This document shows, one piece after another, positions 9,949 through 26,268 of a DNA stretch of 26,654 nucleotides; positions within the stretch are counted from its first letter, which is position 1, and each line of letters starts with the position of its first letter. Where the stretch lies: positions 5,962-32,615 of the forward strand of contig JBNKTL010000054.1 in the NCBI GenBank assembly GCA_050298055.1. Reading direction: 5' to 3'. The notes below the pieces were generated by a model, which searched no databases, was not told the origin of the DNA, and saw only the letters and a list, made by a program, of their open reading frames with translations. The translations under genes were made by a program, and so were the position numbers. The stretch is from Spirochaetota bacterium (lineage in GTDB: Bacteria; Spirochaetota; UBA4802; UBA5550).

Positions 9949-10410
9949 ATGAAAAGTAAGAGTGATTTCCCAAACCTGAATGTAAAAAGTCCTGACGGGA
10001 TTGGACCTGATGGGCGGCCTTACAGGGTAATGGTTGTTGATGATAAGGAATTCCAGAGAAAACAGATCGCGCAGATACTGGAATCTGAAAAATATAATAT
10101 TGTGGCCACTGCGTCAAACGGTAAAGAAGCCCTTGAGAAGTATGAAAAACTCAATGGGAAGGTTGATATAATAACAACGGATCTGGATATGCCCATTCTG
10201 GACGGTTATGCCCTTGTCTATGAGCTTAACCAGCAAAGGATGAAACCCAGGATTGTCTTCATCAGTGAAGATACGACAAAGGGTGTCATGCAGGACCTTA
10301 TCTCCATGGGAATATCTGATTTTATCCTCAAACCGGTGAACAGGAGGATACTCCTTGAGAGGATCAAGGCCATAGCCGTTAAAATTCAAAAGGACTTAAA
10401 CGGAGTATAG
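9949..10410 (+). CDS. cheY: Single-domain response regulator, spirochete CheY-type
   Basis: Receiver motifs VVDD, TTDLDMP (phospho-Asp), FIS, ILKP. N-terminal extension KSDFPNLN..SPDGIGPDGRPYRV resembles Treponema/Borrelia CheY from memory. Confidence 0.75.
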   Translation: MKSKSDFPNLNVKSPDGIGPDGRPYRVMVVDDKEFQRKQIAQILESEKYNIVATASNGKEALEKYEKLNGKVDIITTDLDMPILDGYALVYELNQQRMKPRIVFISEDTTKGVMQDLISMGISDFILKPVNRRILLERIKAIAVKIQKDLNGV

Positions 10411-10412
10411 AG

Positions 10413-11507
10413 ATGCCCGATAATTCCGATCAGGAAAACAACCTGCAGTCAGCAGTAGACTCTTTGTCAGAGCAGACCAGGAGACTGGAGATCGCAAAGT
10501 ACTATACTCATGGGAACTTTGAGAACGCAAAAAAAATGGTTTCCGGATCATATAGAGATCTCTATGCAATTAAAGCGAAGTTCTCATCATCCTCTGTTTA
10601 CGGGGCTTTTCTTGTCTTCTTTAATACTGTGTATCAGCAACTGACAGATTATTTCGGGATCGTATCACATGAATTCAGTGTTGATGATATTAAGACTACC
10701 GGTGACTGGAAGATCTTCGAACAGGAGATTGAAAGGAACCTGAAGTTTAAACTGCATGACGATGTTCTGGGGAACCATCTGAAGGATGAGATAAACAAGG
10801 CATTTACCCCGCAATTCGGGCAGGACCTGAAGAAACTCCTGGACAGCAATGAAGAGATCGGTGTTAATCATCTTTTTCAGAAAGTCACCCAGGACAAGCT
10901 GGGCTTTCCCAATGTTAAAATCAGTGTGGACTTCAATCAGCTCTCTTCCCTGGACATGGAACTCTATTCAATAAGCAGTAAAAAGATCACCCCTGATCAA
11001 ATGAAAGAAGGGGGTGAGACCAGGGACGAAAAAGTTGATGATATCGAGAGAATAGATGATGATGAAGATCCCCTGGATGGGAAAAACGTAAAACTGATAC
11101 TTGAAGGAAGCCTTATGCTTGCGCCCATAAAGGGCAAGGAGATTTCCAGTCTTGTGAGAGGTGACAGGATTAAGGTCAAGATCATTGACAAAAATCCCAA
11201 GGGGATAGCCCTGGCCAAGGCTTTTAATGCTTATGAAGAGGGTAAGATGCTGCCCATAACAGGGAGAATTGTCTCCATCAAGAGTGTTCCCGCGGGGGGA
11301 TTTAAAATTTTTGTTATCGTAGCAAAAGGTATCTTTCTTAAGATAGAAGAAGAGGAAGAGCAGATCAAGGTTGCCATTGATGATCTTGTAGTGAAACCCG
11401 GTGAAAGTTCCGAATCCGAAGGATTCCAGCTCAGCCCCCCGGTCATAATTATTCTTGTTGTTGCGTTTCTTGGTCTTATAGCCGCAATCTTTCTTTTCCT
11501 GATGTAG
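10413..11507 (+). CDS. Hypothetical protein with C-terminal transmembrane anchor
   Basis: 364-aa ORF starting 2 bp after cheY. Acidic linkers, no signal peptide, terminal hydrophobic helix VIIILVVAFLGLIAAIFLFLM. Confidence 0.8.
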   Translation: MPDNSDQENNLQSAVDSLSEQTRRLEIAKYYTHGNFENAKKMVSGSYRDLYAIKAKFSSSSVYGAFLVFFNTVYQQLTDYFGIVSHEFSVDDIKTTGDWKIFEQEIERNLKFKLHDDVLGNHLKDEINKAFTPQFGQDLKKLLDSNEEIGVNHLFQKVTQDKLGFPNVKISVDFNQLSSLDMELYSISSKKITPDQMKEGGETRDEKVDDIERIDDDEDPLDGKNVKLILEGSLMLAPIKGKEISSLVRGDRIKVKIIDKNPKGIALAKAFNAYEEGKMLPITGRIVSIKSVPAGGFKIFVIVAKGIFLKIEEEEEQIKVAIDDLVVKPGESSESEGFQLSPPVIIILVVAFLGLIAAIFLFLM

Positions 11508-12282: not shown

Positions 12283-12482
12283 ATGTTTCCTCGATTTTTT
12301 CGTCAGCTTTTTTCATCTCTTCTTAAGTTTACCAGATTCTCTTTTTGTTCGATATTTTCAATCCCTTTTTTATTATTGTGATCTCCCGAATCCCCCGGAG
12401 GGGAGCCCCCTGAATTTCCCCTGGTGGCTGTTTTCCTATTGACAAATTATAAAAAATATTTCTCTATTGTTTTTAATAAATC

Positions 12483-12622
12483 GTAACAACTCAGCTATGT
12501 ATAAGTATAGTCATATTCAATATAAAAGATAGCCCGTATGTCCCCGCCGCATTCGGCGGCGGGGACATATTGTTGATATTTTAGTAAATAGGGTGATTAT
12601 AACCATATAGCTGAATAATAAT
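12483..12622. mobile_element. 140-bp MITE-like element, copy 2 (inverted relative to copy 1, decayed right end)
   Basis: Aligns without gaps to the reverse complement of 6463-6602 at about 113/140 identity (manual count). Same 13-bp hairpin stem ATGTCCCCGCCGC / GCGGCGGGGACAT (12538-12568). Confidence 0.75.
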
Positions 12623-12638
12623 CTATCTGAAGGACACA

Positions 12639-13433
12639 ATGAAGAAAAAAATTAAGTGGCTTGCGGCAATTCCCCTGTTCTCCCTTCTTCTTGCATGTGA
12701 GACCGGCGGGGGCTTTCTTAAAAAAGAATCTGTTATGAAACTGAACATTCCTGACAGTGAAAAGAAAATCATATCCGTCATGAAGTTTGATGACAGGTCA
12801 ATAGGAACGAGACGCTATAAACCCTGGCGTATGGGGATACCGGACATGATCATGGAGGCGCTGGGGGCCATCCCCTACTACAAGGTCATATCCCGGGAAT
12901 ATATGACCAGGCAGGTGCTGAAAGAACAGGAGTTCCAGCTTCTCGGGGCAACGGACCAGGACAGCGCCGTTAAACTGGGCAACCTGCTCAATGCTCAGTA
13001 TATTGTAATCGGCTCCTTCCAGGTCTTCAGGAATACACTGCAGATTACCTCAAAGGTGGTTTCCGTTAACACAGGAGAGATGATCAAACAGACCTCTGCC
13101 GCAGGCAAGCTGGACAACTTCTTTACCGTCCAGAACCAGATTGCCGTTAATATTTCAACTGCAATGAATCTCAAACTTACCGAAGCTGCAAAGAAAAAGC
13201 TGATCAAAAAGTATGAGACCAGAGTCCTGGATGCTTCCCTTGCCAACTACAGGGGTGAACAGAAGCTGGAAAAAATCGAGGTCCTTAAGAAAAAGAAGAA
13301 GAAGGAAGAAGTAAGGAAAGTCAAGGAGGAAGCCAAGAAGGACTTCAAAGAGGCCATAAAACTTGATACAAACTATGAGAAGGCAAAGAAAAACCTTGCC
13401 AAGATAGGCCTGGGGATACCGGTTACGCTATAG
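12639..13433 (+). CDS. CsgG/HfaB/FlgO-like lipoprotein with C-terminal TPR-like helices
   Basis: Lipobox LLAC (Cys20). ISVMKFDD, VISRE...VLKEQEFQLLG..DQDSAVKLGNLLNAQYIVIGS and KVVSVNTGE match the CsgG/TolB-N fold pattern. AIKLDTNYEKAKKNL is TPR-like. AAGGA RBS. Confidence 0.75.
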   Translation: MKKKIKWLAAIPLFSLLLACETGGGFLKKESVMKLNIPDSEKKIISVMKFDDRSIGTRRYKPWRMGIPDMIMEALGAIPYYKVISREYMTRQVLKEQEFQLLGATDQDSAVKLGNLLNAQYIVIGSFQVFRNTLQITSKVVSVNTGEMIKQTSAAGKLDNFFTVQNQIAVNISTAMNLKLTEAAKKKLIKKYETRVLDASLANYRGEQKLEKIEVLKKKKKKEEVRKVKEEAKKDFKEAIKLDTNYEKAKKNLAKIGLGIPVTL

Positions 13434-13923
13434 ATAAAAAACTCATTTCAAGGAATAAAGAGAGGGAAAATAATTGGGGCTCATGTACCAGGCATTTTTA
13501 ATAAAAGTGACAGATAGAACATATGATTTTAAAGATGAACAGCCGGACAGGTTTGCGAGAGTAACACTGGCGGCAATCTATATGTTCATGTAAAAATACA
13601 GCTTATTAAGAAAAAGCTTTTTTTTACTGCTATTTTGTATTTCTTTGAATAAATGTTATTTCTGTAAATATAAAAATATCAATAAGCTGATTGCTTGATC
13701 TGCACAGAGGTTATATAATAAAATTTTCAGGGCTAAATTGAAAAAATTCTATTTCAGAAAAAAAAATGTCTTATTCTCCTTTTTGCTGACACTTTAAAGT
13801 TAATGTATCATTATAGAAAATACTCTTTAAATTAAATTTTTGAGGAGTTTGGTCAATTAGAAGTAACTTTTTGTAAAATTATACATTTTTATTTAAAATG
13901 TATAATGAAAGAATAAAAAGTGT

Positions 13924-13991
13924 CGTTCATTACACTCTGTGTAGCGTTCATTACATCAGGTATTGACGATTTTTGTTTTATTAAATATTAT
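13924..13991 (+). promoter_or_regulatory. Sigma70-like promoter with upstream tandem direct-repeat operator
   Basis: CGTTCATTACA at 13924-13934 and 13945-13955, then TTGACG (13963-13968), 17-nt spacer, TATTAT (13986-13991). Confidence 0.6.
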
Positions 13992-14261
13992 ATATAATGT
14001 GTAGCAATGCAAAAAAAATATACACAAAAGTGAGAAATTATTTATGATGTATTGTAATCGAAGACGAGAATTTTTTTAAAAAGGTTTATTAAAACTTATA
14101 CTATCAATAATCCTGCAATACTGAATGAATAGCTGTATTCCTGGTAAAGAATAGGTTTATACCCTGCAAGAAAATTTGGTTTATATTGATTATGCTAATA
14201 TCATGCGTAATATACAGAACTGCTATATACAAATTTATTAAAATAAAAAAGAATGTGAAAC

Positions 14262-14921
14262 ATGGACAGAAAATATAAAATTATCTTTTTTACGACTATT
14301 CTGGTATTTATTATTACCGTTTTCCTATTAATTTATTTCATCCCATCTGTATCGTTTTCTCAGTATGCAAAGCAGATGTTTCTCATAGATACAGAATATA
14401 ATAATAAAACCGGAAAATGGTTTGTGAAGATTAATGATAAATATCGTATCACCAGGGAGAACATTGAAAGGGATAAATCTGCGTTGATTAATTCTCTTAC
14501 AGCAGGGAGTAATACCAAGGGCAATAAAGGTGATAAGCAGTTTGATGAAAAGTTCCTGGAAAATACTCTTAACCAGCACCTTATTATCATTGATGCTGTA
14601 GAAAAGGGAATTATCGGCGATAGCAGGTTTAATGATTATCTCTGGCTTTCTGTAAAGGATGCGGTTGTAAAATATTATCTGCTGAAAAAACTTGAGTCGG
14701 AAAAAAAATCCGGTGAAATTATTGTTGATAATAATAAAGTGCAGGAACTTTACAAAAAAAATAAAGTTATATATGAACATCTCGGTTTTTCAAAAGAGAA
14801 GGCGTATCAGAATATAAAAAGTATTCTGATAAAAGAGAGAAAAACAGAAAGGATTAAAAAACTTGAGCAATCGGTTATTAATGAATTGAAGCTTAAGTAT
14901 AAAATTGAATTTTCAAAATAA
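14262..14921 (+). CDS. Membrane-anchored SurA-N/PrsA-like chaperone lacking a parvulin domain (putative)
   Basis: N-terminal TM helix, then the pattern VKIND..ITRENIE, FLENTLNQHLIIIDA.EKGI, V.NNKVQELYKKNK, IKSIL, ELKLKYKIE. No PPIase insert is recognisable. Confidence 0.55.
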   Translation: MDRKYKIIFFTTILVFIITVFLLIYFIPSVSFSQYAKQMFLIDTEYNNKTGKWFVKINDKYRITRENIERDKSALINSLTAGSNTKGNKGDKQFDEKFLENTLNQHLIIIDAVEKGIIGDSRFNDYLWLSVKDAVVKYYLLKKLESEKKSGEIIVDNNKVQELYKKNKVIYEHLGFSKEKAYQNIKSILIKERKTERIKKLEQSVINELKLKYKIEFSK

Positions 14922-14956: not shown

Positions 14957-15598
14957 ATGAGAAGACCAATGTTTTTGCTGATAATAGCTATGCTCTTTTC
15001 CTGCAGCAGCAACTCGGAAAAAGCACTTGAACTGTATATAAAGGGTAAAAAAGCATATAACAAGAAGGATTTGAATAATGCGGAGAAACTTTTTTATGAA
15101 TCGATAAAAAATGACAGCAGTCTTCATAATGCGAAACTTATGCTTTCAAAAATCTACTATTATCATAAAAAGTATTCAGAAGCCCTCCATTTCCTTAACA
15201 GTATATTAAAGGATAACGATAATCATATTGGGGCGCTCTACTGGAAAGCCAGAATTTTATTAATAGATAAGAAAAAGAACATTAACAATGAAAAAATAGC
15301 AGTTGAATGCTTACAGAAAGTCCTTGAACATGATATTCATCACATCAGGGCACGTACACTTCTGGCGCTTCTCTATGAAAAAATGAAAATGTATAAAGAA
15401 GCTATTTATGAATACAGGATGCTTTTAAATGAAGAAGAGGCCCTTATAAATGGAAGGGCAAATCTTGCAATCCTTTATAAGAGAATGGGCTTGGGAGATA
15501 AATCACTCAATGAGATGAATAAAGCGATAAAGATTGCTGATATATCAGGGGTAAGAAGCTCCAACCTTAAGTTTTTGAAGAAGGAGGTAGGTAAATGA
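14957..15598 (+). CDS. Tetratricopeptide-repeat lipoprotein
   Basis: Lipobox LFSC (Cys17). Several TPR units, e.g. AKLMLSKIYYYHKKYSEALHFLNSILKDNDN and ARTLLALLYEKMKMYKEAIYEY. Confidence 0.85.
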   Translation: MRRPMFLLIIAMLFSCSSNSEKALELYIKGKKAYNKKDLNNAEKLFYESIKNDSSLHNAKLMLSKIYYYHKKYSEALHFLNSILKDNDNHIGALYWKARILLIDKKKNINNEKIAVECLQKVLEHDIHHIRARTLLALLYEKMKMYKEAIYEYRMLLNEEEALINGRANLAILYKRMGLGDKSLNEMNKAIKIADISGVRSSNLKFLKKEVGK

Positions 15599-16119
15599 TA
15601 ATCAGGATATTATTCTTCATGTTTTTGATATTTACGTCCTGTTCAACCATGGATTTGTATATAAAGGAAAACGCATTGTTAAATAAACCGGGCAAAATAC
15701 TCATAGGGTATTTTGAAAAAAGGAGCATAGAATATGAGCCATACATTGAAATGAATTTCAGGGATGCACTGAGGTTCCAGTTTTTTCAGCTTGGTTATAA
15801 TTCTATTGTAGTAAAACTTGACGGAAAAGATAATGAGAAAAATGATTTTGGCAAGCGCAATCTCAAAGGTGAAGAGATAAAAAAGATCATAAACAGTTAT
15901 AGTGGTGATATTTATATTCAAGGTGCGATATCGGAAAGGGACGTTGGTGATATTGCAGATAACAAAACCAGCACTTCTGTAATATTTCTTATCTACGACA
16001 AAAATGGGGAAAAGATTGGGGAAGCCCTTTATCTGGCAAGTGAAACAATGGTTGATGCAAGTATTCAGAAAGAAATTTCCAGCAAGTTTGCCGAGAACTT
16101 GCATAATCAGTTTAAATAA
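15595..16119 (+). CDS. Hypothetical lipoprotein (alpha/beta, possibly CsgG/LpoB-like fold)
   Basis: Lipobox FTSC (Cys16). ATGA overlap with the TPR gene. Strong AGGAGGT RBS. Confidence 0.75.
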   Translation: MIIRILFFMFLIFTSCSTMDLYIKENALLNKPGKILIGYFEKRSIEYEPYIEMNFRDALRFQFFQLGYNSIVVKLDGKDNEKNDFGKRNLKGEEIKKIINSYSGDIYIQGAISERDVGDIADNKTSTSVIFLIYDKNGEKIGEALYLASETMVDASIQKEISSKFAENLHNQFK

Positions 16120-16173
16120 GTCCGGATTATTTTTATTCATAAAGTAATAATCAGTTCTGATAAATGCAGAATA

Positions 16174-17643
16174 ATGGCTGAATTTTATCATATAAGAAAA
16201 TTATTTTCTGTGCAGGCTATACTTATTCTGTTGACGCTGAACCTCTATGCTGACAATAAAAAAAACGGTCCGAAGAGAAGTCCCGGCGGATATGCTTCGC
16301 TAGAAATCCTCCAACTTAATCTGGAAAACTCGCTGGGCATAGCTATCAATAACAACTTTCAACTGAAGGCCATTAAAGCGAGAAGTAAGGTATATGACTT
16401 ATCTATTATTGAAAGCTGGAGGGAGTATTTCCCGACCTTGAGCCTCTCTTATATGAAAACTGAAGATATTCGTAAAAGGGAATCAGATACCCGTCAGCAC
16501 AAGTTTTCAGCAGATACCGAGTTTGTAGTTTTTGACGGCGGGAAGCGAAGTTTAAACTATGATATTACAAAGCTCAAGGCAATCCTTGCCAGGAATGATT
16601 ACAGGATTGTACTTAATCAGCTGATAAGGGAAATAAACAAGGTCTATCTCCAGACACTTCAGAAAAAAGATGTAATTGATATCTATAAAATGACCCTGGA
16701 AAAGGGGCAGATGCAACTCAGATTTATTAAAAAGGAGTACAGCCTCGGTGAAGCAACAAAGCTTAATGTCCTTGAGATTGAGGCAAAAGTAAAAGAGATA
16801 GAGCTGAGTTATGAACAGGCAAAGGATGATTACAGTACGGCTCTCAACAACTTTAAACTTCTCCTGAAGCTGGACTGGAGGCAGCCAATTGAACTTGTCG
16901 GGAGCATTGAGAAAGATGTGGAATTGCTGCCCATTGAAAATATTGATATTGAGGAATATATAGCAATTGCGATTAAAAAGAGAAAGGAGATCGAGAGCAG
17001 CGAGGTTGAGCTGGCAATAAACAGAAAATCTTATACCTTTAACAGGCTTTACTATTTCCCAAAGTTTTCTCTGGGACTTAACTACTCACTTACCGATGAG
17101 CAGTTTATACCCAGGGAAAAGGGGTGGGGAATAAACTTCAAAGTCACATCGGCGCTGTTCGGGAATACCGGGTCATACAATACAGGTTATAATGAAAGCG
17201 AGAACAGGAACACCAGGACTTTCTCCGATAGCGGTTCCGTGAATGTTCTCGATGATATGGGATACAAGAGAAGGATCGTAGAAAGTAAAATTGAGCTGAA
17301 TTCCGCGGCAGAAAATGTAAAGGACGTAAAACAGCAGATTTCACTGGAAATACTTAACTCCTATTCGGCTCTTAAGAATTCATGGAAGATGATTCATATT
17401 GCAAGACAGCAGCTGGAACTCTATGATACCCTTCTGAAGATAGAACGTCTCAAGGCAAACATGGGGGAATCGCGAAGGTATGACCTCATGGAAAAGGAGA
17501 TAGAGAGGGGAGAGGCGGCTATCGATTACCTCGGCTCAAAAGTAAAAAATCTTATGGCGATTCTTGCGCTGGAAACAGCCATGGGCGTCGATGCAGGTTA
17601 TCTTAAGCTCTATAAGATGAAATTTAGAAATGGACTAAAGTAA
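16174..17643 (+). CDS. TolC-family outer-membrane efflux channel
   Basis: Signal peptide and two OEP repeats: A..NNFQL, YFPTLSLS, VFDGG, GEAT.LNVLE and YFPKFSLG, Y..L, GES.RYDL. Confidence 0.9.
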   Translation: MAEFYHIRKLFSVQAILILLTLNLYADNKKNGPKRSPGGYASLEILQLNLENSLGIAINNNFQLKAIKARSKVYDLSIIESWREYFPTLSLSYMKTEDIRKRESDTRQHKFSADTEFVVFDGGKRSLNYDITKLKAILARNDYRIVLNQLIREINKVYLQTLQKKDVIDIYKMTLEKGQMQLRFIKKEYSLGEATKLNVLEIEAKVKEIELSYEQAKDDYSTALNNFKLLLKLDWRQPIELVGSIEKDVELLPIENIDIEEYIAIAIKKRKEIESSEVELAINRKSYTFNRLYYFPKFSLGLNYSLTDEQFIPREKGWGINFKVTSALFGNTGSYNTGYNESENRNTRTFSDSGSVNVLDDMGYKRRIVESKIELNSAAENVKDVKQQISLEILNSYSALKNSWKMIHIARQQLELYDTLLKIERLKANMGESRRYDLMEKEIERGEAAIDYLGSKVKNLMAILALETAMGVDAGYLKLYKMKFRNGLK

Positions 17644-17717
17644 CTTCTCTACTATGTATAATTTTAGCCGTTTGACTGATCGGTTGCGGATCTGAATATT
17701 TTTTAAGGAATGTTTAT

Positions 17718-18005
17718 GTGAAAGTTGTAAAGCGGGAAAAAGAAGATGGATCGGCCCTTATATTTATTAAGGGTGATTTAACAATTCAATATGTGAGAAA
17801 GCTGAAGGATTTCATAACGGGATTGTTTGGGAAGTACAATGCCCTGGAGATTGATCTTTCGGAAACCGGGAGACTTGACAGTTCCGGGTTACAGTTGTTG
17901 TTGTATTTTAAAGCTGATAAAAAACTCTATGGGAAAAAACTCATAATCGTTAATCCGTCGGTAGAAGTAAAAAACACTTTCATTAAATTTGGTGAATATT
18001 TTTAA
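17718..18005 (+). CDS. STAS domain protein (anti-sigma-factor antagonist-like)
   Basis: IKGDLTI, EIDLSE..RLDSSGLQLL with the conserved phosphorylatable Ser, LIIVNPS. GTG start behind AAGGA. Confidence 0.85.
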   Translation: MKVVKREKEDGSALIFIKGDLTIQYVRKLKDFITGLFGKYNALEIDLSETGRLDSSGLQLLLYFKADKKLYGKKLIIVNPSVEVKNTFIKFGEYF

Positions 18006-18018
18006 TAAGAGAATTAAG

Positions 18019-20091
18019 ATGAATTTTAAAGAAAAAGTCATAACATATATAAAGAAAGGGAAAGCGGTTATTAACAGGTTAACGGAACTGTTCCATGGAT
18101 TAATTAAAGAAATAACTAAAAGAAAGAGTAATCAGAAAAAACGTAATGGAGAAAACTTCAGGAAAAATCTGGCAGTACAGAACGACTGCTGGCACATTTC
18201 GCTGAGGTTTCCCGAAACTTCTTTTCTCGATGGCCTGGATCTTGCCGGTTTCATTGACAGAATCGGCACACTTGGTGAGTTGCGTTCTGTAAAAACACTC
18301 TTCAATGACCTTTCACTTGAACAGATGAATCCGGAACACTGTTATCTTGGCATCGAGTTGGACCTCTTGAGCAGTTCATCCCTTAACGTAATTGAAAACA
18401 TTTTAAAATCTTCGGAACATGAATGTATCTATCGGATATTAAGTCCCAATAGCGGCTTTTCTGAATACCATGCGATGTTTGATCAATTGCCGGAGGATTC
18501 ATACCGGATGGGTAATCTCCTTGTGGAGATGGGTTCTCTTACGAAGCCGGAATTGGAGGCAATCCGCGGTTTTCATTCTGATGCCGATGTTACGGTTCCT
18601 GAATATGAAGCAGGGGATGAAAGAGCCGGGAAATTCAATATTCCGGCAATAAACAGTTTATTGAGAAACAGGTATTTTGTGAAAGGAGTAATGATTGTGC
18701 TTCTTTTGGTGATTATAACCTCTCTTGCGGTAAAATCCGGCCTTTTTCGTAGTCACGATGACGAAAAAAGCCAGGAAAGGAGTCGTGAAGAAAAGATGGC
18801 TGATGATCCCGCAATCCAGACTTACCGGGTTGTCAATAAAAACGTATCCGATGATATCAAAACTCTCGGGCAGATTGTTTTCTATGAAAAAATTAATATT
18901 TCTTCAAAGGTGAATGGGAGGTTAAGCAGTGTTAACGTCCAGGAGGGGAAAAGAATAAGGAAGGGACAGTTGCTGGCGGAGGTGGAAAGACTTCCCCTTA
19001 AGATAACTCTTGCCCAGCAGAGATCCGAACTGGAAATATCACGCAAGGCCTTTGAACTGACAAGAGCAAAATATGAAAATGCTTTAAAATCAATTGAGAT
19101 CAAGTTAAAGACAATAAGAAAAGCAAAAGCGGACCTCAATGACAAAAAAGTCAGCTATGAGAATATGGACAGGATTTTGCAGAATAAGATGGTACTCTTC
19201 AAAGAAGGAGGCGTAAGCGAAAGTGAAATAAAGACCTTGAAGGCTCAGCATACGACGTCTTTTACCAAGTACCAGCTGGCAAAGTCCGATTATGAAATCC
19301 AGCAGGTAGGATACAGGGACGAGGATATCCAGGCGGAGGGATACGCCGTTCCCCGGTCTGAGGCCGGAAAACTTAAACTCATAAAGAAGATCAATACGAA
19401 AATTGAGAGGGCTGAACTTGAATCTGCAAGATCAAGGATCAGGCAGGCAGAGAATAATATCAGGTCGACAAAAATTATGATCCAGGAGACCTATATAAAG
19501 TCGCCCATAAACGGTGTTGTTGCCGCAAAGAGTATGGAAGCGGGAGAGATGATTAAGGCCGATTCTGTCATCGCTGTTATCATGAATATCTCAAAGGTCT
19601 TTATTGCCATGAATATCAATGAAAAGGACATAAGGAGCGTAAAACTTGGCCAGAATGTCGAGTTTACGGTTGATGCCCTGGGTGACAGGAACTTTAAAGG
19701 TGTCATTTCGAGGATAACCCCCGTTCTCGATATCAAGACAAGGACTATTGAGGTTAAGGCCGATGTCGGTAATGACAGTGAAGTCCTTAAGCCGGGTATG
19801 TTTGCCCGGGCAGTCATCAGGTCGGGAAATACAAGCAGGAAGCTGATGGTCCCGGTATCGGCGCTGATAAAAAAGGAAGGAAATGAAAGTAATGTGTATA
19901 TTGTCAAGAAGGGACTGGTTTTTAAACAAAAAATTATGTTTGGAGAAGAGCATAACGATGAAATCGAAGTTCTCAAAGGCCTTAATGAAAACGATGTAAT
20001 TATTTCAGCCGGTCTTAACCTGGTTTATCCCGGACTCAAAATAAAACCCGGGAAAAAAGGAAAAAGTGAAATTGTGAATTCGGCGAAATGA
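18019..20091 (+). CDS. RND efflux periplasmic adaptor (MFP) with a ~220-aa cytoplasmic N-terminal extension resembling a CheA internal domain
   Basis: ATG 18019 preferred over TTG 17989. TM helix at ORF aa 230-248. Lipoyl halves ISSKVNGRL..VNVQEGKRIRKGQLLA and IKSPINGVV. TRTIEVKA, LKPGMFA, GLNEND.I. Confidence 0.9.
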   Translation: MNFKEKVITYIKKGKAVINRLTELFHGLIKEITKRKSNQKKRNGENFRKNLAVQNDCWHISLRFPETSFLDGLDLAGFIDRIGTLGELRSVKTLFNDLSLEQMNPEHCYLGIELDLLSSSSLNVIENILKSSEHECIYRILSPNSGFSEYHAMFDQLPEDSYRMGNLLVEMGSLTKPELEAIRGFHSDADVTVPEYEAGDERAGKFNIPAINSLLRNRYFVKGVMIVLLLVIITSLAVKSGLFRSHDDEKSQERSREEKMADDPAIQTYRVVNKNVSDDIKTLGQIVFYEKINISSKVNGRLSSVNVQEGKRIRKGQLLAEVERLPLKITLAQQRSELEISRKAFELTRAKYENALKSIEIKLKTIRKAKADLNDKKVSYENMDRILQNKMVLFKEGGVSESEIKTLKAQHTTSFTKYQLAKSDYEIQQVGYRDEDIQAEGYAVPRSEAGKLKLIKKINTKIERAELESARSRIRQAENNIRSTKIMIQETYIKSPINGVVAAKSMEAGEMIKADSVIAVIMNISKVFIAMNINEKDIRSVKLGQNVEFTVDALGDRNFKGVISRITPVLDIKTRTIEVKADVGNDSEVLKPGMFARAVIRSGNTSRKLMVPVSALIKKEGNESNVYIVKKGLVFKQKIMFGEEHNDEIEVLKGLNENDVIISAGLNLVYPGLKIKPGKKGKSEIVNSAK

Positions 20092-23000
20092 TAGAAAAAC
20101 TTGTAAAAAGAAAAGTCACAACGACTATGATATTTCTCGGGATCTGCCTGCTGGGAATTATTTCCGCAGACAGGCTCTCTGTCCAGCTGCTTCCGAACAT
20201 AGAATTTCCCAAACTGACGGTTATAACATCATATGAGAACGCGGCGCCTTCGGAGATTGAGAAGCTCGTCACAAGAAATATCGAAGAGGCTGTGGGTTCC
20301 GTTAACGGTGTCATCTCCGTTTATTCCGAGTCCCTTGAAGGACTCAGCCTGGTCACTGCCCGTTTCGAATGGGAGACCGATATGGATATGGCACTTGTTG
20401 AGACAAAAGAAAAAGTCGATATGATAAAAGGACAGCTCCCCCAGGACACTGAAAAGTCCATAGTCGTGAAGTTTGATCCCAAAGAGTCTCCCATAATGAT
20501 CTATTCGATTATTAACAAAACGGGCGAATTCAAGCAAACGCGCAAAAGGGCTGAAAAGGAGATCCAGCCATATATTGAGAGAATAGAAGGTGTGGCAATT
20601 GCCGATATAACCGGGGGATGGAAGAGGCAGATAAATGTTGAGCTTGATGTCTCTAAAATCTTTTCACACAACCTCTCTCTCCCTGAGGTGATGGAAAGTA
20701 TTAATATGTCCAACTACAATTTCCCTGCCGGTAGCATTGAAAAAGGGAATATGGAGTATCTCGTCAGGACAATCGGTGAGTTTAAAAATATTACTGAACT
20801 TAACAGCGTTGTGGTTGGAAGGAGCGATAGCGGTATCCCCATATATCTTGGAAATATATCCAGCATCAGCGATTCTTATAAGGACAGGAAGTCCATTATT
20901 CGATTTAACGGCAAAGAGTCAGTTGCCCTTCTGATAAGGAAGGAACCGGGTAAAAACACGGTAGATGTTTGCAGAAAAGTTGATGAAGAGATAAATACTT
21001 TCAAAGATAAGTACAGGAACGATTTTCAGATTACAAAGATATACGACCAGTCGGAATTTATTAAAAGCTCTATCAACAACGTATTTAATTCGGCTATTCT
21101 CGGGGGGATAATTGCGATTTTTGTCCTGCTCTTCTTTTTAAAAGAAATACGTTCACCCGTTATTATAGCTACAACGATCCCTATATCGATTATCGGCACC
21201 TTTGCCCTCATGTATTTTAAGGGCATAACACTCAATACCATGTCTCTGGGAGGACTGGCTCTTGCAGTGGGGATGATGGTTGATGCGGGTATTGTCGTTC
21301 TCGAATCAATATCGGGAAAGATCAAAGATCCCGGGAGCTCCGGAATCGTAAAAGCCGTGACTGAAGGTACAAATGAAGTGTTCGGTGCCGTTGTATCTTC
21401 AATTCTGACTTCGATCGTTGTTTTCCTTCCCATTGTTTTCCTTTCGGGGCTGAGCGGTGCGATATTTGGCGAGCTTGCTCTGACAATATCTTTTGCCCTT
21501 ATTTTTTCTCTTATAACGTCGGTAACGCTCATACCAATGCTCTCCACCCTTGGTACGGGAGTTTTCAGGGAGATACCCGGTGTTTTTAAAATCGTAGTTT
21601 TTATAAAAAACAGGATCTTTGATTTCTCCGATATCTTTATGGAAAAAGCTGAAAACCTTTACCGGAAATTAATCAGAATCTCCCTTGGAAGGAGAAAAAT
21701 CGTTATTCTCATGGGCTCCGCTCTCCTTGTTATCGGGGCATTCATGTTTACTCTGCTCCCCACCGAACTTCTTCCTAAAGTTGATCCCGGGATTTTCACT
21801 ATTGATATTGAAGCCCCGAGAGGCACACCGCTTGCCGAGAGTTCAATGATCAGCATGAGGATTGAAAAGCACCTCATGTCGAAACCGTATATAAAGCAGA
21901 TATTTTCCAAGATCGGTTCGGATCCCGATGAAAATATTACTGAAAAAACATCGGGCCGAAGCACCAACAATATCCTTATACAGGTTCTCCTGAAGAAAAA
22001 AAGGGATATGAGTATAAGCGAGATAGTCAGTTTATTAAAAAAAGAGATCAGGCTGGGAGAGAATGTAAATATTGACTACATAATCAAGGAAAATGTTATC
22101 GCGTCGATAATATCCAATCGCATGAAACCTCTCCACATTGAAGTATACGGCAGGGACCTGGATGAGCTCAAGGTTATCGGCAGCGAGATAAAGACGAAAA
22201 TATCGGCAATAAAAGGCATTAAGAATGTGGGTTCGCTCTTTGATAAACTCGATCCCGAACTCAAGGTAGATATTGACAGAAATAAACTGGCGTCCCTGGG
22301 AATAAATATTGCTGACGTTGCGTCAACCATTAAGGCCGCGATTTATGGAGAAGTGGTGACAAAGTTCAGGGACAGGGATGACGAAGTGGATATCAGGGTG
22401 AGGCTTCGAAGAGATGACAGGACAGGCAAAGAGTCTTTGAATAATATTCTCGTTAAAACAGGCGATGGGAACAGTGTCCCCATCGGGAAATTCTCCCTGA
22501 TCCATGAAGGCTACGGATCGAGTAAAATATTACGAAATGAACAGAGCAGGATCAATATTATAACCGCTAACTTTGCCGGAGACGGCGACGGCATAATCGG
22601 GAGAGTAAATAAAATTCTCTCCGGCTTAAAACTAAAAGACGGGTATGAATATAAAATTGTGGGAGAAAAGGACGAGATAATGAAAACATTCAGAAATATG
22701 AGGTTTGCCTTTATCCTGGCGGTTGTCCTTATCTATATGCTCCTTGCATCGCAGTTTCAATCCTTTATTAATCCCCTTATCATAATGCTGAGTATCCCTG
22801 TTGCGTCTTTCGGGATTTCAGGTTCGCTGGCCATAACCGGTAAAAGCCTGAATATAAATTCGGGAATGGGAATCATCATGCTGGCCGGTGTTGTGGTCAA
22901 CAATGCCATTGTCCTTTTTGATTTTATCGAAAAGGAGAGGCTGGAGGGGAAGAACCTTATGGATGCCATCGTTGAGGCGGGGAACAGGCGGCTGAAACCG

Positions 23001-23213
23001 ATACTTATGACAACTTTTACGACAATTTTCGCTCTCCTTCCGATTTCTCTCGGGATCGGTGAAGGGGCGGAACTTCAACAGCCAATGGCAATTGCCGTAA
23101 TCGGGGGGCTTACCGTTTCAACCCTCTTAACTCTCGTATTTATCCCCACTGTCTATTCGATGATCAATAAGGACAACAAAGATTACGATAATGATTCGGC
23201 TATTGTGACTTGA
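20088..23213 (+). CDS. RND transporter permease subunit 1 (AcrB/AcrD/AcrF family)
   Basis: 1041 aa. LPNIEFP, APSEIEKLVT, TM4 GMMVDAGIVVLE, TM10 GVVVNNAIVLFD, RLKPILMTT, PMAIAVIGGL. ATGA overlap with the MFP gene. Confidence 0.95.
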   Translation: MIEKLVKRKVTTTMIFLGICLLGIISADRLSVQLLPNIEFPKLTVITSYENAAPSEIEKLVTRNIEEAVGSVNGVISVYSESLEGLSLVTARFEWETDMDMALVETKEKVDMIKGQLPQDTEKSIVVKFDPKESPIMIYSIINKTGEFKQTRKRAEKEIQPYIERIEGVAIADITGGWKRQINVELDVSKIFSHNLSLPEVMESINMSNYNFPAGSIEKGNMEYLVRTIGEFKNITELNSVVVGRSDSGIPIYLGNISSISDSYKDRKSIIRFNGKESVALLIRKEPGKNTVDVCRKVDEEINTFKDKYRNDFQITKIYDQSEFIKSSINNVFNSAILGGIIAIFVLLFFLKEIRSPVIIATTIPISIIGTFALMYFKGITLNTMSLGGLALAVGMMVDAGIVVLESISGKIKDPGSSGIVKAVTEGTNEVFGAVVSSILTSIVVFLPIVFLSGLSGAIFGELALTISFALIFSLITSVTLIPMLSTLGTGVFREIPGVFKIVVFIKNRIFDFSDIFMEKAENLYRKLIRISLGRRKIVILMGSALLVIGAFMFTLLPTELLPKVDPGIFTIDIEAPRGTPLAESSMISMRIEKHLMSKPYIKQIFSKIGSDPDENITEKTSGRSTNNILIQVLLKKKRDMSISEIVSLLKKEIRLGENVNIDYIIKENVIASIISNRMKPLHIEVYGRDLDELKVIGSEIKTKISAIKGIKNVGSLFDKLDPELKVDIDRNKLASLGINIADVASTIKAAIYGEVVTKFRDRDDEVDIRVRLRRDDRTGKESLNNILVKTGDGNSVPIGKFSLIHEGYGSSKILRNEQSRINIITANFAGDGDGIIGRVNKILSGLKLKDGYEYKIVGEKDEIMKTFRNMRFAFILAVVLIYMLLASQFQSFINPLIIMLSIPVASFGISGSLAITGKSLNINSGMGIIMLAGVVVNNAIVLFDFIEKERLEGKNLMDAIVEAGNRRLKPILMTTFTTIFALLPISLGIGEGAELQQPMAIAVIGGLTVSTLLTLVFIPTVYSMINKDNKDYDNDSAIVT

Positions 23214-23214
23214 C

Positions 23215-26200
23215 ATGAAGTATTTTATAAAAAACCATATAAGCGCATTCATGCTCTTTCTCGGTTTGTTGATTTTCGGGCTGATCGGTCTCAGCAGGCT
23301 GACCGTATCCCTTATGCCTCAATCCAGTTATCCCGCCATATCGGTCATTATCGAGTATCCGGGTATAGCACCGGAAAAAATTGAGACCATAATAACAAAG
23401 CCAGTTGAGAAGATAATCAAAACCGTGTCCGGTATTGAAAAGGTCAACTCAATATCCGAGGAGGGTAAATCCCGGATTAACATCAGCTTTGAGATCGATG
23501 CGGACATTAAGATTTCCGCCCTGAAAGTCCGTGAGAAGATAGGGTTGATACGGCCGTATTTTCCCGATGAAGTTCAGGAGCCGGTGGTGGTAAGATATGA
23601 TCCCACGGACAGGCCCGTAATAATTGCTACCGTGGAAAGCGAGGGAAAATCACCTGAAGAAACCAGGGAAATTGTTGAGAGAAAAATCAAGCCGAAGCTC
23701 CAGAGGATAGAGGGGGTCTCGGAGATAAATATTGCCGGGGGGCTTCAGAGAGAGATACATATAAACGTTGACAGCGGCAAACTCTTTGCCCGCGATATAT
23801 CTTTTCGAGATATATCACCCTTAATCCAGAAAAGCAATATCTCCCTTCCCGGCGGCATTGTCCGTTCAAATAACAGGGATTACATCGTCTATACCTCGTG
23901 CAGGTACAGGAGCCTGGATGAGATATCCGGCACTGTTATCATGAAAGCATCCAGGGGATCGCTGATTAATATTAATGATATTGCAAAAGTTAAAAATTCA
24001 TACAGGGACAAGGAGGATATTGCCCGGCTTAACGGCAGGGAGAGGATTACCCTCTATATCCACAAAGCGGGTGACGCCAACACCCTTGATGTATGCAATA
24101 AGGCCGCGGATTTACTGTCAAAAAACAAGTATGCTGATTCCACACTGGTTTATAACCAGGGTGAATATATCCAGGCATCCATAAACAATGTTGTCAGCTC
24201 GGGGATCTGGGGTGTGGTTATCGTCATTCTGGTCCTTTCCCTTTTTATCAAAAGAATTGGCATTTCATTTACAATCGGGTTTTCCATGCCGGTTACCCTG
24301 GTTATTGTTTTTGCCTTTATGTATTTTTTCGGTTTAAGCATCAATATCATGAGCCTGAGCGGTCTGGCCCTGGGTGCCGGTATGATCGTTGATAACGGAA
24401 TTGTCATCGCGGAATCCGTTTACAGTGGGGAGGAAATAGATGATACCGGTATCTATGAAAGAGTATCGTCCGTCAGGAACGCGATCATCTCTTCCACACT
24501 GACGACAATCGTCGTTTTTTTCCCCATTGTCTTCAGTAACGCGGAAGCGAAAAGGACATATACCGACCTTGCGTTTACGGTGTCTTCCGCGCTGCTTATA
24601 TCGCTTCTCACGGCGGTTGTCCTGATCCCTTCGGTTTTTTCCGCCCTTGAGAAATATAATACCCGCAAGAGATCATTTAAATTACCCGGATTCCTCAATG
24701 AATTGAAAAAATTCTATAGATTTCTTAAAAACCGGGTGGAGGAGGGTGAAGAATATCTCCTGGAGAAATACAGGGGCCTTCTTGACTATTCGTTTAGTAA
24801 TACCGGGAAAGTCATTTCTGTTGTTCTTGTCATGTCATTTGTATCCCTGGCAATCTACACGCTTATAAAAAAGGAATATGTGGACCCTTCGGGCAGAAAG
24901 GAATTTTATGTCTATCTTGAATTCCCCACGGGCACATCCCTGAACTATACAAATGCAGCCGTAAAGGAGGCTGAAAAGTATATCAGGTCGCTTGATGTAT
25001 CGGAGAAGCTCTCGACAAAAGTTGAAAAATGGAGGGGCACCCTTTCAATAGAATTAAAGGACAGGTTTTCTTCAGCTGATGAACAGCTTGAGATTAAAGG
25101 GAAGATCAAAAAAAACGTTAACAGACTTTTAAAACAGTATAACGGTTTTGTTTTTATAACCGAGGCGGATGAAGTTTCGGCGAAGGAGCTCAATATTGTT
25201 TTCATTGGAAATGACAATAGCCGGCTGCAGAAACTTGCCAGGAATGCCGCGGGACAGATTGCGAAGATTCCTTCTATTACCGATTGTGTTCTCAGGTTCA
25301 GGGAGGGAAGGCCGGAATACAGGATCTATGTTCAGAGGGACAAGGCGTCCCTTTCGATGATAACGCCGGCAATACTGACCGACTTTTTCAGGAGCGCGGT
25401 TTTTGGCCCTGTTGTTACAAAGTATATCGATAATGACAGGGAAGTGGACGTCAGGATGAGGTTTAACAGGGACCAGCGTGATTCTATTGATAAGATATTA
25501 AACTACCAGGTCAGGAACCTTAATGGAGTTACAATTCCGGTGAAAGAAGTTGTGAATATAAGGGAAGAAGCGGGACCCACAAAGATCTGGAGACAGAACG
25601 GCCGTCGAAGCGTGACGATTACCGCGAAAATCGGAAGCCTTACCTATGATGAAGCCTCGCGGCATATTACTCAGGCACTGAAAAAAGTGAAATTTCCCGC
25701 AGAGTATACTTATGAATTCGGTGAAAACCTGAAGAAGATAAAGAAGAACCGAAAAGGTATGATGATAGCCATAGGACTGGCCATTGTACTTGTCTATATG
25801 GTCCTGGCATCACTGTTTGAATCCATAAGGCTGCCTTTTATTATCATGACAACAGTCCCTCTTGCCCTGATCGGCGTGATCTTTACACTGTTTATAACAT
25901 CGTCATCAATAAATATTTCAGTCTATATCGGTCTCATTGTGCTGGCGGGAATTGTTGTTAATAACGGCATCATACTTGTGAATTCAATAAATAACGGCTA
26001 CAGGTTAAATGAGATGAATGGGGAGAATATCGATATCTATATAAAAAATATATGCTATAAAAGATTCAGGCCGGTACTCATTACCACCCTGACCACTATT
26101 CTGGGTTTGTTTCCCATGCTGATTAAAAGCGGTGAAGGAAGTAATCTCTGGCGGCCCCTTTCTTTAACAGTCATAAGCGGGCTCCTGTTTTCAACTCTCC

Positions 26201-26268
26201 TGACCCTTGTGGTAGTGCCTGTATTGAGCTATTTATTGTTTAAATACGATTTAAGGAGCAATCAATGA
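23215..26268 (+). CDS. RND transporter permease subunit 2 (AcrB/AcrD/AcrF family)
   Basis: 1017 aa. YPGIAPEKIE, TM4 GMIVDNGIVIAE, TM10 GIVVNNGIILVN, RFRPVLITT. Starts 1 bp after subunit 1. Confidence 0.95.
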   Translation: MKYFIKNHISAFMLFLGLLIFGLIGLSRLTVSLMPQSSYPAISVIIEYPGIAPEKIETIITKPVEKIIKTVSGIEKVNSISEEGKSRINISFEIDADIKISALKVREKIGLIRPYFPDEVQEPVVVRYDPTDRPVIIATVESEGKSPEETREIVERKIKPKLQRIEGVSEINIAGGLQREIHINVDSGKLFARDISFRDISPLIQKSNISLPGGIVRSNNRDYIVYTSCRYRSLDEISGTVIMKASRGSLININDIAKVKNSYRDKEDIARLNGRERITLYIHKAGDANTLDVCNKAADLLSKNKYADSTLVYNQGEYIQASINNVVSSGIWGVVIVILVLSLFIKRIGISFTIGFSMPVTLVIVFAFMYFFGLSINIMSLSGLALGAGMIVDNGIVIAESVYSGEEIDDTGIYERVSSVRNAIISSTLTTIVVFFPIVFSNAEAKRTYTDLAFTVSSALLISLLTAVVLIPSVFSALEKYNTRKRSFKLPGFLNELKKFYRFLKNRVEEGEEYLLEKYRGLLDYSFSNTGKVISVVLVMSFVSLAIYTLIKKEYVDPSGRKEFYVYLEFPTGTSLNYTNAAVKEAEKYIRSLDVSEKLSTKVEKWRGTLSIELKDRFSSADEQLEIKGKIKKNVNRLLKQYNGFVFITEADEVSAKELNIVFIGNDNSRLQKLARNAAGQIAKIPSITDCVLRFREGRPEYRIYVQRDKASLSMITPAILTDFFRSAVFGPVVTKYIDNDREVDVRMRFNRDQRDSIDKILNYQVRNLNGVTIPVKEVVNIREEAGPTKIWRQNGRRSVTITAKIGSLTYDEASRHITQALKKVKFPAEYTYEFGENLKKIKKNRKGMMIAIGLAIVLVYMVLASLFESIRLPFIIMTTVPLALIGVIFTLFITSSSINISVYIGLIVLAGIVVNNGIILVNSINNGYRLNEMNGENIDIYIKNICYKRFRPVLITTLTTILGLFPMLIKSGEGSNLWRPLSLTVISGLLFSTLLTLVVVPVLSYLLFKYDLRSNQ

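Follow-up and report, generated by a model that had tools for sequence, protein, structure and literature searches.

How does the adaptor of an RND exporter come to carry a piece of the kinase CheA in front of its membrane anchor, and what would such a piece do on a pump? The question is raised by a stretch of 26,654 nucleotides (nt) from an uncultured Spirochaetota bacterium (assembly GCA_050298055.1, contig JBNKTL010000054.1, positions 5,962 to 32,615), here called the window, in which the stop codon of a STAS gene is followed after 13 nt by the ATG (18019) of an open reading frame (ORF) that joins the two proteins. Judged by homology, adaptor residues ~53-205 derive from a CheA and comprise its P2-like domain and the first of two MshEN-like motifs. 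Taken as a whole, the best explanation in our view is that the pump is normal apart from this relic, at which STAS would dock, a reading to which we give about an even chance of being right. The STAS gene and the parts of the fusion ORF are arranged as follows, with residues given in amino acids (aa):

17718..18005, + strand: STAS gene, intact, of the cheA-linked type (Pfam STAS; alignment; tree)
18019..20091, + strand: fusion ORF of 690 aa, an RND adaptor with a cytoplasmic tail from CheA (TIGR01730, above cut-off)
18019..18174, + strand: aa 1-52, predicted basic amphipathic helix (structure model; composition; hydrophobic moment)
18175..18447, + strand: aa 53-143, diverged CheA P2-like domain (homology, predicted fold)
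18325..18348, + strand: aa 103-110, MNPEHCYL, retained motif and core of the predicted STAS interface (complex model)
18505..18576, + strand: aa 163-186, the first of the two MshEN-like motifs, without the second, and degenerate at the terminal Leu and Gln (alignment, profile)
18628..18642, + strand: approximate CheA-to-adaptor junction, G204-K205 corresponding to the start of MshEN motif 2 (alignment)
18676..18732, + strand: transmembrane (TM) anchor, aa 220-238 (hydropathy 2.65)
18733..20091, + strand: periplasmic adaptor core (Pfam HlyD_D23, HlyD_3)

The sequence-only reading of this locus had taken the segment for part of a CheA, and a sequence search did return CheA proteins, among them those of the genome's own intact cheA genes C35 (35% identity, E 1e-24) and C11 (37%, E 1e-20), each of which lies directly 3' of a STAS gene. 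The coordinates and motifs given in that reading stood; its residue count, which runs from the TTG at 17989, had to be shifted, so that its aa 68 is W58 here. The segment is 43% identical to a 732-aa CheA, and in a search of 1.84 billion representative sequences it gave 268 matches at E 0.001. When the 149 best non-self matches and the 732-aa CheA were classified (n=150), 74 had both Hpt and core, 37 Hpt only, 13 the core only and 26 neither, the last being fragments or stand-alone proteins, and an adaptor domain was found in 0/150. The C11 and C35 CheAs, like those of related Spirochaetota and Gallionella, share with the fusion the WHISLRF...CYLG.E domain, the first MshEN-like motif and a STAS gene upstream, whereas the fusion lacks the Hpt, dimerisation, kinase and CheW domains, the conserved helix patches and the second MshEN motif, and is joined to a membrane adaptor. 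With 0/4 of the domains that an excerpt of PMC10782961 describes as the CheA kinase core (Hpt, dimerisation, HATPase, CheW), the protein is not itself a CheA, and to call the insert a chemosensory module, as had been done, was to overstate the case, given that no Hpt, kinase or CheW came along.

A structure model of aa 1-214 (mean predicted local distance difference test score, pLDDT, 82) shows a helix at 3-37, a beta-alpha-beta-beta-alpha-beta arrangement at 58-141 and three short helices, and the fold predicted for the P2-like domain is ferredoxin-like. The P2 domain of Thermotoga maritima CheA (1u0s) aligned with the modelled tail at Z 6.5 and rmsd 3.2 over 78 residues, which placed it at rank 11, level with ACT domains and further folds. 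Foldseek gave no match at E 0.001. The Pfam P2 profile (PF07194) matched 6/28 family members weakly (best E 0.008) and the graft not at all; Pfam and single-sequence PDB searches of the segment yielded nothing useful, and the protein A matches among them were not meaningful. Since the predicted fold is ferredoxin-like and the domain sits between the Hpt and dimerisation domains in the C11 and C35 CheAs, we regard 'P2-like' as a fair name for it.

Behind this domain, the parent CheAs carry two MshEN-like motifs 11-17 residues apart (25 other rows scored), compared with a spacer of 5 residues in MshE, and a profile match to PilF (E 2.6e-8) supports the assignment for the parent family, as do the top seven Foldseek rows, all GSPII/MshE domains at weak E values. 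The fusion holds motif 1 only, with 3/6 key residues kept (RMG...LxxxRxxH as against LxxxLxxQ); at about G204-K205 the adaptor sequence takes over, such that the adaptor tail and TM helix stand in place of motif 2.

The tandem MshEN-like pair between P2 and dimerisation domain, which Pfam does not detect, was seen in CheAs at L001:7025-9244, L002:6597-8738 and loci L037-L060, and CheAs of this build may, to judge from their motifs, bind cyclic di-GMP (c-di-GMP). An association of MshEN with CheA has already been reported in section 12 of PMC5013675, as excerpted. We also came across stand-alone proteins of 202-211 aa that consist of a P2-like domain and an intact MshEN tandem, in three genomes of genus g29 (L024:6428-7042 in G051, L025:6244-6852 in G040 and L087:4700-5314 in G089), in two of which the gene lies 3' of MCP and cheR genes; P0019 and P0129 are further examples. 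They have lost the P2 helix patches as the fusion has, and have kept both MshEN motifs. Such proteins may be free c-di-GMP receptors derived from CheA.

The STAS gene upstream starts with GTG, encodes 95 aa (Pfam STAS, E 1e-8), has the motif DSSG at aa 54-57 and retains the invariant residues G19, D54 and Q59. Its closest relatives in the genome are two che-operon STAS genes (E 4e-10 and 3e-9; the next match is at 0.012), with which it groups loosely in a tree (support 89). Its STAS-only domain content and its nearness to STAS genes adjoining cheA place it in the cheA-linked, CheS-like type. The spacing fits as well: the 13 nt that had been noted between STAS and the adaptor ATG compare with 12-15 nt between STAS and cheA at most loci in relatives, and a STAS gene directly upstream of such cheAs is indeed what C11 and C35 show. 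Among the 13 PDB relatives of the STAS family none is named as a chemotaxis protein; MlaB, the STAS subunit of a transporter, is one of them. As to the donor, the cheA genes of genera g5, g12 and g23 come nearest by identity (42-45%, compared with 34-37% for the genome's own copies), and a quick tree gives the graft no definite position inside the family clade. The STAS tree and the identities of the cheA piece disagree, so that a single donor for both is not established. We take the class of such STAS-linked CheAs to be F8; the graft is without the core domains on which to classify it.

Residues 1-52, with 15 K/R to 4 D/E, have a hydrophobic moment equalled by 29/2000 shuffles. Three origins were tried for them, none of them convincing: as the first Hpt helix, 638 and 199 of 1000 shuffles scored as well; as the last Hpt helix, 34 and 366 of 1000; and as an adaptor tail, 69/1000 at best. 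Over these tests, 1/30 pairwise comparisons reached 18/1000.

The rest of the ORF is an ordinary member of the RND periplasmic adaptor family, scoring 199.6 bits to TIGR01730 (cut-off 94.9), with Pfam domains HlyD_D23, HlyD_3 and Biotin_lipoyl_2, and accompanied, as this family requires, by a TM anchor, tolC and two permease genes. Its core keeps 145/156 anchor sites and the TolC protein 125/131, both within the normal range. The claim of about 220 cytoplasmic residues before the membrane holds, since 219 residues separate the ATG at 18019 from the TM helix at 220-238; a second TM helix was sought in aa 1-213 and none was found, no hydropathy window exceeding 0.85. The system thus has the same TolC, adaptor with normal core and two ACR_tran permeases in a row as tripartite RND exporters of the TIGR01730, MdtABC-like kind, from which it differs by the 219-residue cytoplasmic tail with a folded CheA-derived domain, as modelled, and by the STAS gene inside the operon. 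Adaptors of the EmrA/HlyD/MacA type likewise combine a TM helix anchor with a sizeable cytoplasmic part; an excerpt of PMC8277102 reports such parts from ABC, MFS and type 1 systems, where they are used in substrate recognition and assembly, whereas the present tail belongs to an RND system and derives from CheA.

How rare is this arrangement? Orthologous loci without STAS gene and extension, for which a search had been suggested, are the rule: 0/34 fetched (27 distinct by their N-termini) had a STAS or CheA match. When 61 genomes were searched with the full-length protein, close orthologues of the adaptor aligned only from about aa 202 on. The same fusion, for which a search of related genomes had also been suggested, did not recur: among the 99 matches listed from 122 genomes of the class, the window's own is the only one to span the CheA and adaptor parts. 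The exact 690-aa protein is present in a public collection, where it is the sole member of its 90% cluster; a search by shared words with aa 1-214, confined to proteins of similar length, gave 0/177 candidates, and a metagenome scan one locus, an ordinary cheA. The best 120 of 1053 profile matches were all CheA-type, in a search that puts well-conserved copies at the top, from which the fusion itself was missing, and that therefore says little about other degenerate fusions. An adaptor-CheA fusion was met with in none of the titles or abstracts listed, which came mostly from outside subscription journals. The architecture is real and, within these sequence and literature searches, unique, in line with the earlier remark that no described MFP was known to have it.

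Orthologous adaptors have tails of 16-59 aa in 33/34 rows. At L070:3488-5287 lies an orthologue of 551 aa, starting from GTG, that has an unrelated acidic N-terminal extension of ~150 aa. In genus g12 (L018, L019; L074, L076), 190-200 nt of GC-rich non-coding sequence without similarity to STAS or CheA lie between tolC and adaptor.

If a CheA-derived tail is there, what could it bind? Of the partners that had been named for it, STAS fares best. The modelled complex of the STAS protein with adaptor aa 52-189 scored 0.85, compared with 0.00 for the best of three controls, its runs share at least 89% of contacts, and the partner has a pLDDT of at least 88. The mark applied to this score was reached by 116/157 solved and 2/215 mismatched pairs, rates that are only roughly valid for the alignments used here. 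The best-resolved contacts join STAS 55-60 (SSGLQL, with the invariant Q59) to M103, P105, E106, C108, Y109 and L110, and the predicted interface centres on the retained NPEHCYLG motif. Of the P2 residues in these contacts, which were picked after the fact, 7/8 match the family consensus. A precedent exists in Sinorhizobium meliloti, where the che-cluster STAS-only protein CheS binds CheA, according to an excerpt of PMC12654446 that cites Dogra 2012; in the present case, STAS is modelled on the P2-like domain, the CheA lineage is another one, and there is no kinase or CheY relay. From the model, we consider binding of STAS to the P2-like tail most likely. CheS is reportedly bound by the P2 domain of CheA itself.

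The docking-relic reading can be put as a sequence of events. Into the locus of a conserved exporter with TolC, adaptor and two RND permeases, a fragment of a STAS-cheA operon was inserted, behind tolC and ahead of the adaptor gene, as had been proposed at the outset and as homology, synteny and the open frame show. The STAS gene stayed whole. The cheA part lost Hpt and the entire kinase core, and what is left of it runs, where its second MshEN motif would start, in frame into the cytoplasmic tail of the adaptor. The tail, as modelled, would still fold as a P2-like domain and most likely still bind the STAS protein of its own operon via the NPEHCYLG face, and, to go by the residues lost, it would no longer dock CheY or bind c-di-GMP. 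The pump would then export as its relatives do, now with STAS on the cytoplasmic side, and the pairing would mainly cap or stabilise the grafted domain, without any need for it to switch transport. That an adaptor tail can tolerate extensions is suggested by the orthologues, whose tails vary between 16 and 59 aa in 33/34 rows and one of which carries the acidic extension.

A number of observations weigh against this reading. The fusion is found in a single genome only, and the end branch of the graft is the longest of 89 in the quick tree (2.64, median 0.51). Its pattern of changes is reached by neutral drift in an open frame in 183, 111 and 63 of 1000 simulations, a test of little power that three stand-alone copies fail likewise. 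The Shine-Dalgarno-like (SD-like) site at 18019 is weak, with -2.9 kcal/mol as opposed to -9.5 at M164 and -4.3 at codon 208. The predicted interface is not kept in excess of background on the P2 side (10/14 compared with 23/39 elsewhere, p 0.53), on the STAS side (9/18 compared with 8/16, p 1.0) or in any test of the whole interface (p 0.45-1.0). The complex score may moreover reflect the ancestral pairing of STAS and CheA and not this copy, because both input alignments came mostly from intact che operons.

The alternative that survives best, although we think it unlikely, is that the graft is a partnerless, decaying passenger, with a working adaptor being made from an internal start or with the tail merely being tolerated. 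The graft keeps 36/57 anchor sites, as opposed to 83-100% in 29 intact CheAs; by this sequence measure it is old and worn. Besides the long branch and the SD-like sites before M164 and codon 208, the latter codon itself speaks for this alternative: it is where a normal adaptor would begin, and at position 18642, at the fusion junction, it reads ATT in the window and ATG in sequencing run X2. An internal start near the TM helix, named earlier as a condition that would refute the fusion, is possible on these grounds. Decay is opposed by the absence of any stop or frameshift across 207 codons. Codons 2-207 stay free of stops in 0/5000 shuffles (codons 2-52 alone in 33/5000), the remaining two + strand frames contain 13 and 21 stops, and when an intact P2-MshEN segment was left to decay neutrally until 37% of its residues had changed, 24-36/500 runs stayed stop-free. 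The frame is thus open beyond chance and has been translated. The STAS gene is also intact, with a good SD-like site (-5.1), the CYLG core has been retained, and the complex score stands against a partnerless relic.

A second alternative goes further than the docking relic and makes STAS on the adaptor tail an on/off subunit of a regulated pump, its S55 being phosphorylated in an interplay of partner-switching kinases and phosphatases that controls the assembly, turnover or placement of the pump. We take the serine equivalent to S55 to be the phosphorylation site. S55 and S56 lie within the predicted interface, and the motif DSSGL departs from the DTAGF consensus of che STAS proteins and corresponds in an alignment to MDSAGL of TM1442, an anti-sigma antagonist. 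In the genome there are 15 matches to HATPase_c_2 above cut-off, some of which are not anti-sigma kinases, and 20 matches of the SpoIIE type. MlaB, as a STAS subunit on a transporter, resembles the proposed STAS on the pump. Against regulation stand the orthologous pumps that do without the graft, the absence of any demonstrated path by which the tail, across a single TM helix, could act on the RND permeases, an interface not conserved in excess, and the fusion being a singleton. On the strength of the model, regulation of export by STAS is possible; the on/off subunit in this specific form seems improbable to us. The same doubt attaches to a related proposal, which we rate as not likely, that the STAS-CheA docking pair was rewired into a cytoplasmic control subunit in which STAS, phosphorylated on Ser or competed for by intact CheAs, governs assembly, activity or placement of the pump.

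Much less survives of the idea of a chemosensory input, by which CheY docking on P2 or c-di-GMP on MshEN would control export, and which had been put forward with CheY or a nucleotide messenger as the signal. In its favour are the persistence of the P2-like fold, the tandem MshEN of the parent family, the intact che systems of the genome, and the thought that half-motifs of neighbouring adaptors might pair in trans. Yet two P2 helix patches that are kept in 106/112 and 111/112 full CheAs are gone from the fusion, as from 5/5 stand-alone copies, and these helices presumably form the CheY face. The insert brought no cheY along. The response regulator at 9949, also tried as a linked partner and rejected, lies ~7 kb upstream in another neighbourhood, beside a LIC10486-family gene and a hisF-like ORF (so named by eye, from its sequence), outside any che operon. 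As for c-di-GMP, an excerpt of PMC5013675 describes a site requiring two motifs with LxxxLxxQ in the MshEN receptor domain (5HTL, PilF). The fusion has a single motif of the form RxG..L..G.L....L, one of the two required, with its terminal Leu and Gln missing, and hence neither a tandem of two 24-residue motifs nor intact RLG and LxxxLxxQ residues. Because the helix patches are lost and MshEN is halved and degenerate, an input of CheY or c-di-GMP to the pump appears unlikely on sequence grounds, and control of export by this route very unlikely indeed.

The contigs of other runs leave little room for an artefact. Run X1, possibly the source sample, covers 15500-18369 and 18384-21500 with zero differences, run X2 covers 16834-18050 and 18341-20249, and run X3 covers 18124-18364 and 18402-18560; all three come from one study. 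X1 and X2 both bridge the join from tolC through STAS to the ATG, and both also bridge the junction between CheA piece and adaptor; the point at which the CheA piece begins is crossed in X1 and X3. This answers the earlier call for a check of the junctions. A chimera that joined a che operon to an exporter in assembly, for which it could be said that no single contig holds the whole stretch, that all holders stem from one study and that X1 has a hole of 14 nt (18370-18383) to the left of which the covering X2 contig reaches by only 29 nt, is made unlikely by contigs from more than one sample that cross the junctions. No joints are listed, the hole falls inside the CheA-colinear domain, and the piece is at most 46% identical to any intact cheA found and uniquely degenerate, as no chimera would leave it; we regard a chimera as highly improbable. 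RNA runs carrying the stretch were sought among the sequencing runs listed and none was found.

The fusion stands in an exporter locus on the + strand with the order TPR gene, LIC10494-family lipoprotein gene, tolC, STAS, adaptor ORF and two RND permease genes. The remaining members are:

14957..15598, + strand: TPR protein, upstream member of the exporter locus (Pfam TPR)
15595..16119, + strand: LIC10494-family lipoprotein (NCBIfam NF033169, above cut-off)
16174..17643, + strand: TolC-family outer membrane channel (Pfam OEP)
20088..23213, + strand: RND permease 1 (Pfam ACR_tran)
23215..26268, + strand: RND permease 2 (Pfam ACR_tran)

In a wider set of 15 orthologous loci, 13 have the TPR gene 5' of tolC and 13 the lipoprotein gene. 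The two permeases, neither of which reaches an NCBIfam family cut-off, are likely a heteromeric pair, as their adjacency suggests. By family names only, the response regulator, the LIC10486-family gene (9949-11507), the LIC10494-family lipoprotein and tolC (15595-17643) recall the neighbourhood LIC10486-LIC10496 of Leptospira, in which LIC10496 is an outer membrane efflux protein according to an excerpt of PMC2387172. Further upstream, a GC-rich hairpin repeat at 12470-12620 (arms around CATATGTCCCCGCCG, -33.5 kcal/mol) resembles repetitive extragenic palindromic (REP) elements and recurs in the genome at about 275 places, spread over 70 contigs. A short repeated element at 13915-13960, within the AT-rich gap 13433-14262, contains CGTTCATTACA twice, occurs at about 19 places on 19 contigs and is possibly a regulator site. 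The repeats listed around the insert itself include no conspicuous terminal repeats, and promoter-like sites are at chance level (6 compared with 7.1).

What would the fusion mean for exporters and for chemotaxis kinases of this family? Were it nothing more than a passenger, it would be a neat instance of domain shuffling, seen in a single genome. It can also be seen as a natural deletion experiment, which has left STAS and the P2-like domain together and has removed the rest of a che operon. The model, by placing Q59 of STAS on the CYLG motif, offers a testable, residue-level proposal for the role of the STAS genes that stand beside this kind of cheA, for which CheS was the only precedent found in the literature searched. 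Should the docking pair have been rewired, the graft would also map where the STAS proteins of che operons bind their kinases. If binding of STAS gates export, this would be an RND pump with a cytoplasmic regulatory subunit on its adaptor, and on the evidence of the model the CheA-derived inner tail may give the pump a docking site of a new kind.

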